This document shows positions 3,001 to 9,000 of a DNA stretch of 64,000 bases, piece by piece. The stretch is from Escherichia coli (GTDB lineage: Bacteria; Pseudomonadota; Gammaproteobacteria; Enterobacterales; Enterobacteriaceae). The position numbers were made by a program. Where the stretch lies: NCBI RefSeq assembly GCF_030013205.1, contig NZ_CP122648.1; one strand, given 5' to 3'. The stretch's first letter is position 1, and every line of letters begins with the position of its first letter.

Positions 3001-6000
3001 CGCAACATATTCCGCACCTGCCAGCGCCGACAGTAGCCCTTGTGCTGCGCCATATACCGCGGTTCCCAGCGTCGGAATCCCTTCCGCTTTTAACATCTTA
3101 ATAGCTGCCAGCCCCTCAGCGGCCACCGGAACTTTCACCACGATATCCGCAATAATAGAACGCAATTTACGTGCGTCATTCACCATCCCTTCAGCAGTGG
3201 TAGCCATTACCTGGGCAAACAGACGCCCCTGACCGCCCATCGCCTCGTGAAGTTGCGGAAGCACAACCTCCAGCGGTTTTTTACCCGCTGCGATAATGCT
3301 TGGGTTAGTGGTTACACCCGCCAGCGGAAAAATACGTGACAGCGCCTTCACCGCAACAACGTCTGAAGTATCCAGATACAGTTCCATAACCATCCTCAAA
3401 ATGTACTTTTTGTCTGAATGTAGACTATCACGGGAAAACTCTCTGAACAGTTGACGCACATCAATCTAGCTTTCATTCGAAAGTATTTTAATGTTTGAAC
3501 GAAACAGAGAGGCAACTATGATTTTCAATATTCAACGCTACTCGACCCATGATGGCCCCGGTATCCGCACGGTCGTATTTCTTAAAGGCTGTTCGCTGGG
3601 CTGCCGCTGGTGTCAGAACCCGGAAAGCCGCGCCCGCACGCAGGATCTGCTGTATGACGCACGACTGTGTCTGGAAGGCTGCGAGCTGTGCGCTAAGGCC
3701 GCGCCGGAAGTGATTGAGCGCGCGCTGAATGGTTTGCTTATCCATCGGGAAAAGTTAACCCCGGAGCATTTTACGGCGTTAACCGACTGCTGCCCGACAC
3801 AGGCGTTAACCGTATGTGGTGAAGTGAAAAGCGTTGAGGAGATCATGGCAACCGTTTTGCGCGATAAACCGTTTTACGAGCGCAGCGGCGGCGGCTTAAC
3901 GCTTTCTGGCGGTGAACCGTTTATGCAGCCGGAAATGGCGACGGCGCTGCTGCAAGCCAGCCACGAGGCCGGCATTCATACTGCGGTAGAAACCTGTCTG
4001 CATGTGCCGTGGAAATATATCGCCCCTTCTCTGCCCTATATCGATCTGTTTCTTGCCGATTTAAAACACGTTGCCGACGCGCCGTTTAAACAGTGGACCG
4101 ACGGTAACGCCGCCAGAGTGCTGGATAACCTGAAAAAACTCGCCGCAGCGGGCAAAAAAATCATTATCCGCGTGCCGCTGATTCAGGGCTTTAATGCCGA
4201 CGAAACCTCTGTGAAAGCCATTACCGATTTTGCCGCCGACGAGCTGCACGTTGGTGAAATTCATTTCCTGCCCTACCACACGCTGGGCATCAACAAATAT
4301 CACTTACTTAATCTGCCCTATGACGCCCCGGAAAAACCGCTTGATGCGCCAGAACTGCTCGACTTTGCCCAGCAGTATGCCTGCCAGAAAGGGTTAACCG
4401 CGACCTTACGAGGATAACAACCATGACCACACTGAAACTGGACACGCTCAGCGACCGCATTAAAGCGCACAAAAATGCGCTGGTGCATATTGTGAAACCG
4501 CCGGTTTGTACCGAGCGCGCGCAGCACTATACCGAGATGTATCAACAACATCTCGATAAGCCGATCCCTGTACGTCGCGCGCTGGCGCTGGCACATCACC
4601 TGGCGAATCGCACTATCTGGATCAAGCACGATGAGTTGATCATCGGCAACCAGGCAAGCGAAGTTCGCGCCGCGCCGATCTTCCCGGAATATACTGTCTC
4701 GTGGATCGAAAAAGAGATTGATGATCTGGCAGATCGTCCCGGTGCTGGCTTTGCGGTGAGCGAAGAGAACAAACGCGTTCTGCATGAAGTGTGCCCGTGG
4801 TGGCGCGGTCAGACCGTACAGGATCGCTGCTACGGCATGTTTACCGATGAGCAAAAAGGTCTGCTGGCGACCGGCATCATTAAAGCGGAAGGCAATATGA
4901 CCTCCGGCGATGCGCACCTGGCGGTCAATTTCCCGCTGCTGCTGGAAAAAGGGCTTGATGGTCTGCGCGAGAAAGTAGCGGAACGTCGCTCGCGCATCAA
5001 CCTGACGGTGCTGGAAGATTTACATGGCGAGCAATTCCTGAAAGCGATTGATATCGTGCTGGTAGCGGTCAGTGAACATATTGAACGTTTCGCTGCCCTG
5101 GCGCGTGAAATGGCCACGACCGAAACCCGCGAAAGCCGTCGCGATGAGCTGCTGGCGATGGCAGAAAACTGCGATCTTATCGCCCACCAACCGCCGCAGA
5201 CTTTCTGGCAGGCGCTGCAACTGTGTTACTTCATCCAGTTGATTTTGCAGATTGAATCTAACGGTCACTCAGTATCTTTTGGTCGTATGGACCAGTATCT
5301 GTACCCGTATTATCGTCGCGACGTTGAACTCAACCAGACGCTGGATCGTGAACACGCCATCGAGATGCTGCATAGCTGCTGGCTGAAATTGCTGGAAGTG
5401 AACAAGATCCGCTCCGGCTCGCACTCAAAAGCCTCTGCGGGAAGTCCGCTGTATCAGAACGTCACTATTGGCGGGCAAAATCTGGTTGATGGTCAACCAA
5501 TGGACGCGGTGAATCCACTCTCTTACGCGATCCTTGAATCCTGCGGTCGCCTGCGTTCCACTCAGCCTAACCTCAGCGTGCGTTACCACGCGGGAATGAG
5601 CAACGATTTCCTCGACGCCTGCGTACAGGTGATCCGGTGCGGCTTCGGGATGCCGGCGTTCAACAACGACGAAATCGTGATCCCGGAATTTATTAAACTC
5701 GGTATTGAACCGCAGGACGCTTACGACTATGCAGCGATTGGTTGTATCGAAACCGCCGTCGGTGGCAAATGGGGCTATCGCTGTACCGGCATGAGCTTTA
5801 TCAACTTCGCCCGCGTGATGCTGGCGGCGCTGGAAGGCGGTCGTGATGCCACCAGCGGCAAAGTGTTCCTGCCACAAGAAAAAGCGTTGTCGGCAGGGAA
5901 CTTTAACAATTTCGATGAAGTAATGGACGCGTGGGACACGCAAATCCGTTACTACACCCGCAAATCAATCGAAATCGAATATGTCGTTGACACCATGCTG

Positions 6001-9000
6001 GAGGAGAACGTGCACGATATTCTCTGCTCGGCGCTGGTGGATGACTGTATTGAGCGAGCAAAAAGTATCAAGCAAGGCGGCGCGAAATATGACTGGGTTT
6101 CTGGCCTGCAGGTTGGCATTGCCAACCTCGGCAACAGCCTGGCGGCAGTGAAGAAACTGGTGTTTGAACAGGGCGCGATTGGTCAGCAACAGCTGGCTGC
6201 CGCACTGGCGGATGACTTCGACGGCCTGACTCACGAGCAGCTGCGTCAGCGGCTGATTAACGGTGCGCCTAAGTACGGCAACGACGATGATACCGTCGAT
6301 ACGCTGCTGGCTCGCGCTTATCAGACCTATATCGACGAACTGAAACAGTACCATAACCCGCGCTACGGTCGTGGTCCGGTTGGCGGCAACTATTACGCGG
6401 GTACGTCGTCTATCTCCGCTAACGTACCGTTTGGCGCGCAGACTATGGCAACGCCGGACGGGCGTAAAGCCCACACCCCGCTGGCAGAAGGCGCAAGCCC
6501 GGCTTCCGGTACTGATCATCTTGGCCCTACTGCGGTCATTGGCTCGGTGGGTAAACTGCCTACGGCAGCGATTCTCGGCGGCGTGTTGCTCAACCAGAAA
6601 CTGAATCCGGCAACGCTGGAGAACGAATCTGACAAGCAGAAACTGATGATCCTGCTACGCACCTTCTTTGAAGTGCATAAAGGCTGGCATATTCAGTACA
6701 ACATCGTTTCCCGCGAAACGCTGCTGGAAGCGAAAAAACATCCGGATCAGTACCGCGATCTGGTAGTGCGTGTCGCGGGTTATTCCGCCTTCTTCACTGC
6801 GCTCTCTCCAGACGCACAGGACGATATCATCGCCCGTACTGAACATATGCTGTAACTCTTCCGCCCGGCGGCCACCGTCGCCGGGCCAAATCATTCACAT
6901 CATCAATTTCAGCCTCGCTTTCATTCGAAATATAATTTGTGCTCTGCGTCACATTGTTATTACACTGTTACGGTTTCATTTTCGAGCCAGGAGCACACCT
7001 ATGAGCGTAAAAGTTATCGTCACAGACATGGACGGTACTTTTCTTAACGACGCCAAAACGTACAACCAACCACGTTTTATGGCGCAATATCAGGAACTGA
7101 AAAAGCGCGGCATTGAGTTCGTTGTCGCCAGCGGTAATCAGTATTACCAGCTTATTTCATTCTTTCCTGAGCTAAAGGATGAGATCTCTTTTGTCGCGGA
7201 AAACGGCGCACTGGTTTACGAACATGGCAAGCAACTGTTCCACGGCGAACTGACCCGACATGAATCGCGGATTGTTATTGGCGAGTTGCTAAAAGATAAG
7301 CAACTCAATTTTGTCGCCTGCGGTCTGCAAAGTGCATATGTCAGCGAAAATGCCCCTGAAGCATTTGTCGCACTGATGGCAAAACACTACCATCGCCTGA
7401 AACCTGTAAAAGATTATCAGGAGATTGACGACGTACTGTTCAAGTTTTCGCTCAACCTGCCGGATGAACAAATCCCGTTAGTGATCGACAAACTGCACAT
7501 AGCACTCGATGGCATTATGAAACCCGTCACCAGTGGTTTTGGCTTTATCGACCTGATTATTCCCGGTCTACATAAAGCAAACGGTATTTCGCGGTTACTG
7601 AAACGCTGGGATCTGTCACCGCAAAATGTGGTAGCGATTGGCGACAGCGGTAACGATGCGGAGATGCTGAAAATGGCGCGTTATTCCTTTGCGATGGGCA
7701 ATGCTGCGGAAAACATTAAACAAATCGCCCGTTACGCTACCGATGATAATAATCATGAAGGCGCGCTGAATGTGATTCAGGCGGTGCTGGATAATATCGC
7801 TCCTTTCAATAGTTGATCTTCCCCCTGGCCGAAGTGACCACTTCGGCCTCTCTCCTTTTTGCTCGCTTTGTGCACTGACTCAAGATTTTTATCTTGCGTT
7901 AACTTATTTTTAACTTAATGTATCAATCGTAATCATTTTACTTCCGAATGAAAGATGCGAGGTTGATATGACTTTTTCCTGTGAGACGCTGCCCACAGAT
8001 GCGAAAGCGGCTATCCGAGAGATGAAAGCTGCGCTGCGGGAACAGCTCGGTGATGTGCAACAGGTTTTCGATACACTCTCTGCAAAAATCGAAACGCGTG
8101 TTGCTGAAATCGATGCCCTAAAAGCGCAATGGCTGCCGGTTTGGCCGGAAGTTTCTTATAGTGATATTGCCGCAGGTACAGTAAGCGATGCCACTCGCAA
8201 TGAAATTAAGCGTCGCGGCTGTGCAGTCATAAAAGGCCATTTCCCTCGCGAGCAGGCGCTGGCGTGGGATCGTGCCATGCTCGATTATCTTGATATCAAT
8301 CATTTTGATGATGTTTATAAAGGCCCTGGCGACAGTTTTTTCGGCTCGCTGGAGGCTTCTCGTCCCGAAATCTATCCCATTTACTGGTCGCAAGCACAGA
8401 TGCAGGCGCGGCAGAGCGAAAATATGGCTGCTGTGCAATCTTTTCTAAACCGACTGTGGACGTCTGAAAGCAACGGCAAACAGTGGTTTGATCCTGATAT
8501 CAGTGTAATTTATCCAGACAGGATCCGCCGCCGCCCTCCAGGTACCACATCTAAAGGCCTGGGCGCACATACCGATTCTGGTGCGCTGGAACGGTGGTTA
8601 TTACCCGCTTATCAGCGCGTTTTTGCCAATGTGTTTAATGGTAATTTCGATGATTACGATCCCTGGGATGCTACACACCGGACCGAAGTCGAAGAGTACA
8701 CGGTAGATAACACTACCAAATGTTCGGTGTTCCGCACGTTTCAAGGCTGGACGGCGCTCTCTGATATGTTATCGGGTCAGGGATTGTTACATGTGGTGCC
8801 TATCCCGGAAGCGATGGCGTATGTTTTATTGCGCCCGCTGCTGGATGACGTACCGGACGATGAACTGTGCGGGGTTGCACCTGGCAAAGTTCTGCCCATT
8901 TCAGAGAAATGGCATCCACTACTGCTTAAAGCGCTGACTTCCATTCCCGCGATAACAGCAGGGGATTCCGTCTGGTGGCACTGCGATGTGATTCACTCCG

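Follow-up and report, generated by a model that had tools for sequence, protein, structure and literature searches.

The ybiY-ybiW glycyl radical enzyme pair of Escherichia coli, with the divergent fsaA gene, as a very likely module for anaerobic 1,5-anhydroglucitol catabolism

We analyzed the ybiY-ybiW gene pair in a stretch of 64,000 nucleotides of Escherichia coli (NCBI RefSeq assembly GCF_030013205.1, contig NZ_CP122648.1), hereafter the window. The pair encodes a radical S-adenosylmethionine (SAM) activating enzyme (ybiY; 3518–4417, + strand) and a glycyl radical enzyme of 810 aa (ybiW; 4423–6855, + strand), both annotated at exactly these coordinates. Together with the divergent fsaA gene, which encodes fructose-6-phosphate aldolase 1 (2725–3387, − strand), these genes very likely form the E. 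coli module for the anaerobic catabolism of 1,5-anhydroglucitol (AG), a dietary sugar analogue; we give this reading a probability of roughly 0.88. The preliminary description of the locus had considered the pair an orphan whose substrate was not settled and had stated that this view would be overturned if a biochemical assignment of the substrate were found in the literature. This is out of date: an assignment to 1,5-anhydroglucitol-6-phosphate (AG6P) exists, as summarized in a review (PMC12441222 citing Ma et al. 2024). Going by that summary, the function of YbiW is already known from the 2024 assignment and the pair is no longer an orphan.

Published substrate and annotation of the pair

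In section 5.1 of the 2025 review (PMC12441222, citing Ma et al. J Am Chem Soc 2024;146:26187), YbiW is briefly reported to cleave AG6P, yielding 1-deoxyfructose-6-phosphate, and PflD, a paralogue of YbiW, to cleave 1,5-anhydromannitol-6-phosphate (AM6P) to the same compound, both reactions being dependent on a glycyl radical. The same short account describes the anaerobic breakdown of AG and 1,5-anhydromannitol by gut bacteria, with both pathways beginning with phosphorylation by the phosphotransferase system (PTS) and enabling growth on 1,5-AG in E. coli and many gut bacteria. The fsaA and ybiV genes, both annotated beside the pair as initially described, had been taken as a hint of a sugar-derived substrate, and this hint was right. 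A full-text literature search for anhydromannitol and deoxyfructose returned no description beyond this review.

Crystal structures are deposited in the PDB under the names "Probable dehydratase YbiW" (8ID7 and 8YJN) and "Probable dehydratase PflD" (8YJO). The two YbiW entries match the protein of the window over residues 1–810 (1855 bits) and differ from it at the four strain substitutions listed below and by alanines at positions 114, 115 and 117. We take these alanines to be crystallisation mutations, K-12 presenting E, E and K at these positions.

The annotation of the pair lags behind this literature, which is why it looked like an orphan. RefSeq names the enzyme "glycyl radical protein" or "putative pyruvate formate lyase", NCBIfam (June 2026) contains no equivalog model for YbiW, and a 2026 Reg-Seq preprint on E. 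coli regulation still calls ybiYW unannotated. Readers and pipelines that rely on annotation will keep rediscovering ybiYW as an orphan. We regard the finding as closed and explained, with the annotation lag as its practical point.

Integrity and conservation of the pair

The pair is real and intact in the window: domain matches, motifs and gene coordinates all bear out the glycyl radical enzyme and activase initially placed at 3518–6855. YbiY matches the Radical_SAM profile (1.3e-13) and the activase model TIGR02494 (1.1e-110; 369.5 bits vs. a cut-off of 174). It presents the radical-SAM motif CSLGCRWC at residues 25–32 and a second, ferredoxin-like Cys-rich insert (C51, C55, C58, C91/92/100) that is common to PflC and lacking in PflA. 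YbiW matches the PFL-like domain PF02901 over residues 11–671 (E = 4.7e-209), the Gly_radical domain PF01228 over residues 688–792 (E = 1.6e-32) and TIGR01774 (E = 0), and its C-terminal glycyl-radical loop (RVxG[FWY] type) contains Gly786. Both the CxxxCxxC cluster of ybiY and the glycyl-radical loop of ybiW had been quoted beforehand, and both are present. All the features of the glycyl radical superfamily that we looked for were found, namely the barrel and Gly-radical domain, the loop, the catalytic Cys and the adjoining radical-SAM activase. C441 of YbiW aligns with C433 of the Clostridium butyricum glycerol dehydratase (GDH) and with the Cys of PflB that is number 420 in the translation used. 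These features suggest that YbiY would install the glycyl radical on YbiW.

The pair had been described as conserved in E. coli, and the region is indeed carried by 5425 of the 5426 complete genomes of the species. Strain K_EC180 is 100% identical to the window from 3000 to 7500. Relative to K-12, the ybiYW genes present 97.3% nucleotide identity, and YbiW is identical to b0823 at 806 of 810 positions, the differences being conservative (E184K, A232T, H474R and D769E). YbiY presents four substitutions and FsaA three amino acid differences; the catalytic residues of YbiY and YbiW are unchanged. Five bases separate the end of ybiY from the start of ybiW, and the divergent fsaA and ybiY genes are spaced by 130 bp. 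FsaA matches NF009296 (E = 3e-135) and scores above the cut-off of TIGR00875. The mechanical open reading frame of ybiY is longer, as it starts from an in-frame ATG at 3491; this start was rejected because it sits inside the conserved −10 element of the promoter, which makes 3518 the real start of the gene. Finally, one database protein of 1047 aa (P0007) joins YbiW (99% identity) to HAD phosphatase domains; it probably represents either a ybiW-ybiV read-through or an artefact of assembly or gene calling.

Active site of YbiW

We aligned the active sites of YbiW, PflD, GDH (PDB 1R8W) and PflB, a comparison that the preliminary description had proposed. YbiW presents an eliminase-type set of residues, unlike PflB, which agrees with the published assignment: C441/E443 (C433/E435 in GDH), H165 (H164), H282/S283 (H281/S282), Y344 (Y339) and G786 (G763). 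The sequence IGCIE containing C441 and E443 was kept in 15 of the 15 homologues examined, and so was H165. The G-C-x-E motif and active-site His of the eliminase class are thus both present, yet two substrate contacts specific to GDH are altered: D447 is replaced by G456, within a 2-residue insertion, and Y640 by S662. These changes are carried by the loops KWGYRCTGMSF (residues 450–460) and YYAGTSSISANV (residues 657–668), both of which are invariant in a homologue with 54% identity as well as in the orthologues of Yokenella, Mixta, Yersinia and Brenneria, and decay at ≤46% identity. Overall, the alignment suggests that YbiW resembles a 1,2-eliminase, yet would be neither a glycerol dehydratase nor a pyruvate formate-lyase, and its residue pattern is consistent with an elimination that opens the ring of a larger, phosphorylated substrate.

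If the K-12 annotation "putative pyruvate formate lyase" were followed, YbiW would be a further formate-lyase acting on pyruvate (or another 2-ketoacid). This is in line with its membership in the Pfam PFL-like superfamily and with the formate acetyltransferase names attached to the K-12 protein and to PDB 6XS4. However, YbiW shares 24% identity with PflB, presents Cys-Ile-Glu where PflB presents Cys-Cys-Val-Ser, and carries a His at the position of R177 of PflB. Moreover, it scores far below the cut-offs of TIGR01255 (161.9 bits vs. 994) and NF007437 (579 vs. 1109), and no focA-like formate channel is found near ybiW. We consider a formate-lyase activity scarcely credible.

A glycerol or 1,2-diol dehydratase similar to GDH would match the 37% identity to 1R8W, the conservation of H164, H281, S282, Y339, C433 and E435, and the "probable dehydratase" titles of the PDB entries. 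The replacements of D447 and Y640 nevertheless affect substrate contacts, and the loops that carry them are invariant among YbiW orthologues. In addition, neither a propanediol dehydrogenase nor a microcompartment is encoded nearby, and the conserved neighbor is an aldolase of phosphorylated ketohexoses. A dehydratase of this type is therefore very improbable.

Genomic context and homologues

The divergent core formed by fsa and ybiY-ybiW is kept in Yersinia, Mixta and Brenneria, and everything around it differs. In K-12, the paralogous pair pflD-pflC adjoins the second aldolase gene fsaB, gldA and the frw/ptsA phosphotransferase genes, and FsaA and FsaB share 69.5% identity. This arrangement of two paralogous radical enzymes, each located beside one fructose-6-phosphate aldolase (FSA) paralogue, is as the published pathway predicts. 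FsaA and FsaB reportedly split the common product into glyceraldehyde-3-phosphate and hydroxyacetone, and GldA is said to reduce hydroxyacetone to 1,2-propanediol. The 2024 work is also said to explain why E. coli has two FSA aldolases. FSA is described as able to use hydroxyacetone as donor; in 2020, the physiological role of the enzyme was termed enigmatic.

A word-indexed search for homologues of YbiW returned only Enterobacterales, with at least 86% identity, and an exhaustive search of cluster representatives returned diverse homologues. No FSA aldolase was found in the neighborhoods of homologues with 40–54% identity, several of these contigs being too short to tell. The longer contigs carry FGGY or ROK kinases, sugar ABC transporters, a ribulose-phosphate epimerase or a 2-oxoacid-dehydrogenase-like set, and the homologues with 40–46% identity are probably enzymes for other sugar substrates. 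The homologues without FSA were not counted against the assignment of YbiW because the YbiW-specific loops decay there. These loops delimit the likely isofunctional homologues of YbiW.

Several metagenomic homologues with 42–44% identity (L008 3303–12335, L009, L010 and L011) were found in other sugar contexts. One of them follows 2-oxoacid-dehydrogenase-like E1/E2/E3 genes and is followed by an activase and a lipoate ligase gene; the others are accompanied by FGGY kinases, a ribulose-phosphate 3-epimerase, sugar ABC transporters or another pair of radical enzyme genes. These proteins look like uncharacterised glycyl radical enzymes directed at sugars. The closest non-enterobacterial homologue (P0121, 54% identity; L004 5258–10436) presents the YbiW-type signature loops, with a ROK-family kinase just upstream and a lyxose-isomerase-like cupin, a HAD phosphatase and a lactonase as neighbors. 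No activase gene adjoins it; 4 kb downstream, a second radical enzyme is followed by one. This locus also contains a YciT-like regulator (40% identity).

Candidate regulatory elements

The Reg-Seq preprint found the ybiY promoter to be active only under anaerobic conditions, with an activator footprint to which no factor was assigned. In this promoter, we identified an FNR-like box, TTGACGCACATCAA (3451–3464, + strand), which matches 9 of the 10 positions of TTGAT-N4-ATCAA. It is followed by a −10 element, TTTAAT (3487–3492, + strand), predicted from sequence and conservation, which places the inferred transcription start at about 3499, and by the Shine-Dalgarno sequence GAGAGG of ybiY (3506–3511, + strand). 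The box is the sole match in the window, but 0.36 matches are expected and 23 of 100 shuffled sequences reach one, so that the count alone is within chance. In the four genera compared (E. coli, Yersinia, Mixta and Brenneria), the TTGA/TCAA half-sites of the box do not change, whereas the spacer varies, and the centre of the box falls at −41.5 relative to the predicted start, which is the position of a class II activator. We infer that FNR would be the missing anaerobic activator, acting at a predicted class II site of the ybiY promoter. A generic promoter scan proposed only TTGAAC-16-TATGAT (3495–3522), which overlaps the start codon; the geometry formed by the conserved FNR box and TTTAAT was preferred.

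The palindrome CTTTCATTCGAAAG (3470–3483, + strand; 13-base core at 3470–3482) stands downstream of the FNR-like box and upstream of the −10 element and forms an invariant block in the four genera. Its 13-mer, CTTTCATTCGAAA, is found in a second exact copy at 6918–6930 (+ strand), where it abuts a consensus TATAAT (6931–6936) before ybiV. A third copy with one mismatch, CTTTCATTCGGAA, is located at 7942–7954 on the − strand, 14 bases upstream of the start codon of ybiU. Three copies with at most one mismatch, before ybiY, ybiV and ybiU, were therefore observed versus 0.08 expected, and all three are exact in K-12. In the other genera, related copies precede ybiY; such copies also precede the ybiU homologue of Mixta and the regulator gene of Yersinia.

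YciT, a regulator of the DeoR family, presents ChIP-exo peaks upstream of ybiUVWY and fsaA with a palindromic motif, and the deletion of yciT alters the expression of ybiV, ybiY and fsaA (PMC8464067). YciT was also pulled down on the ybiY promoter in the preprint, with a Reg-Seq/mass-spectrometry footprint there, and the published data show this promoter to be bound and repressed by YciT. DeoR regulators with 59–65% identity to E. coli YciT adjoin the module in Yersinia, Mixta and Brenneria (L012 9847–10602, L013 2910–3674 and L014 4308–5054), whereas yciT of E. coli is unlinked to the module and lies beside osmB. The repeated palindrome CTTTCATTCGAAA is probably the YciT operator, and the segment 6918–6936 is predicted to be a YciT-controlled promoter of ybiV.

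Downstream genes and the extent of the module

Downstream of the pair, ybiV (7001–7816, + strand) encodes a Cof-type HAD sugar phosphatase (TIGR00099, 221 bits) and ybiU (7968–9227, + strand) a DUF1479/Gig2-like protein (PF07350, E = 8.5e-150). A GC-rich hairpin without a T-run, GCCCGGCG-N8-CGCCGGGC (6863–6886, + strand), is located just 3′ of the ybiW stop codon and may act as a weak terminator or as a transcript stabiliser; a terminator-like hairpin (7827–7848) follows ybiV. The ybiU product counts 419 aa here, with the N-terminus MTFSCETLPTDAK, vs. 421 aa in K-12, where it starts with MASTFTSDTLPADHK. In Mixta, fsa-ybiYW is adjoined by the gene of a YbiU homologue (68% identity), which the motif precedes. 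An Rfam scan of positions 1–12000 of the window returned no RNA element. Further away, between dinG and rhlE (approximately 34002–38003), a "type III effector" gene is annotated together with two hypothetical genes, and this segment may represent an insertion specific to the strain.

It is conceivable, but we hold it as tentative, that fsaA, ybiYW, ybiV and ybiU form a single YciT regulon defined by CTTTCATTCGAAA, with class II activation by FNR and release of repression by AG6P or 1-deoxyfructose-6-phosphate, YbiV and YbiU taking part in anhydro-sugar metabolism. If so, YbiV could serve to remove the phosphate from toxic AG6P, the part played by G6PC3 in human cells. The same substrates could also be handled by YbiU, for which an oxygen-dependent role beside the oxygen-sensitive YbiW is pure speculation.

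Alternatively, AG6P could be a secondary substrate of YbiW, its main substrate being another sugar or polyol phosphate of similar local geometry, with YbiV and YbiU acting on the true intermediates. Indeed, ybiV and ybiU share the operator motif and their products have no assigned step, and the homologues with 40–46% identity that lie beside FGGY kinases, sugar ABC transporters and a ribulose-phosphate epimerase indicate a branch that diversified on sugars. According to the review summary (PMC12441222), the pathway allows E. coli and gut bacteria to grow on 1,5-AG, which speaks against this alternative. Substrate-complex structures, reportedly obtained, would also do so, and we regard the alternative as unlikely.

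Several points weigh against the assignment of ybiY-ybiW and fsaA to AG catabolism under the regulation described above. The substrate assignment rests on a one-paragraph review summary and PDB entry names, and these names refer to a dehydratase, whereas the reaction is a ring-opening isomerisation. No PTS for AG uptake was found within the 64-kb window, and no aldolase within 8 kb of P0121. The roles of YbiV and YbiU in the pathway are left unexplained. As for the regulation, both the FNR site and the operator's identity are predicted, the motif scanning of the Reg-Seq authors gave no candidate activator, and a literature search linking ybiY with FNR returned nothing.

Proposed mechanism

Under the preferred assignment to AG6P, AG would first be phosphorylated by the PTS, as stated in the review summary. 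Based on the chemistry of the family, the [4Fe-4S] cluster of YbiY and S-adenosylmethionine would generate the radical on Gly786 of YbiW, which would hand it to Cys441. The Cys441 thiyl would then take a hydrogen from the hydroxyl-bearing C2, and Glu443 and His165 would assist the loss of the adjacent C1–O5 ether bond, opening the ring and leaving a ketone at C2. The hydrogen atom would finally be returned and C1 would become a methyl group. FsaA would split the resulting 1-deoxyfructose-6-phosphate into glyceraldehyde-3-phosphate, which would enter glycolysis, and hydroxyacetone, a step with which the genomic context agrees. PflD would catalyze the parallel reaction on the C2 epimer AM6P, as in the review summary, and the inferred mechanism would explain why the two C2 epimers give one product. 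Expression of the module would be activated anaerobically by FNR from −41.5 and repressed by YciT through the palindrome.

To the published assignment, our analysis makes small additions: a predicted FNR class II site, a putative three-copy operator that would tie ybiV and ybiU to the module, YciT orthologues that in other genera adjoin the module, and the YbiW signature loops.

Comparison with known systems

The K-12 proteins YbiW/YbiY (b0823/b0824) constitute the same pair, with the same neighbors and promoter, and present no functional difference. PflB/PflA share with YbiW/YbiY the fold of the superfamily, the glycyl-radical loop (IRVSGYAV in PflB) and activation by a radical-SAM enzyme. 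They differ by the low identity noted above (24%), by the Cys-Cys of PflB where YbiW presents Cys-x-Glu, and by the absence from PflA of the ferredoxin-like insert of YbiY.

GDH and the other 1,2-eliminases (propanediol dehydratase, CutC, HypD and the sulfopropanediol dehydratases) share with YbiW the Gly/Cys relay, the Cys-x-Glu motif and the conserved His. The outline of the chemistry would also be common: a radical is formed on a carbon that bears a hydroxyl, and the neighboring carbon loses its leaving group. In YbiW, however, the leaving group would be the ring ether oxygen, so that the ring opens and no water is released. YbiW also scores far under all the equivalog cut-offs of these families (e.g., 530 vs. 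1100 for HypD and 462 vs. 1050 for CutC).

PflD/PflC resemble YbiW/YbiY in their catalytic set (C419/E421, H156 and G741 in PflD), in the ferredoxin-like insert of the activase and in the adjoining FSA aldolase, and the same product is reported for both enzymes in the review summary (PMC12441222). The two enzymes share 38.5% identity and the substrate of PflD is the C2 epimer. PflD retains the Asp (D433) and Tyr (Y617) of GDH where YbiW presents G456 and S662, and it presents S265 and G325 where YbiW presents H282 and Y344. Finally, the PflD locus has its own phosphotransferase genes (frwBCD and ptsA) and gldA, whereas the window containing YbiW is without an AG PTS.

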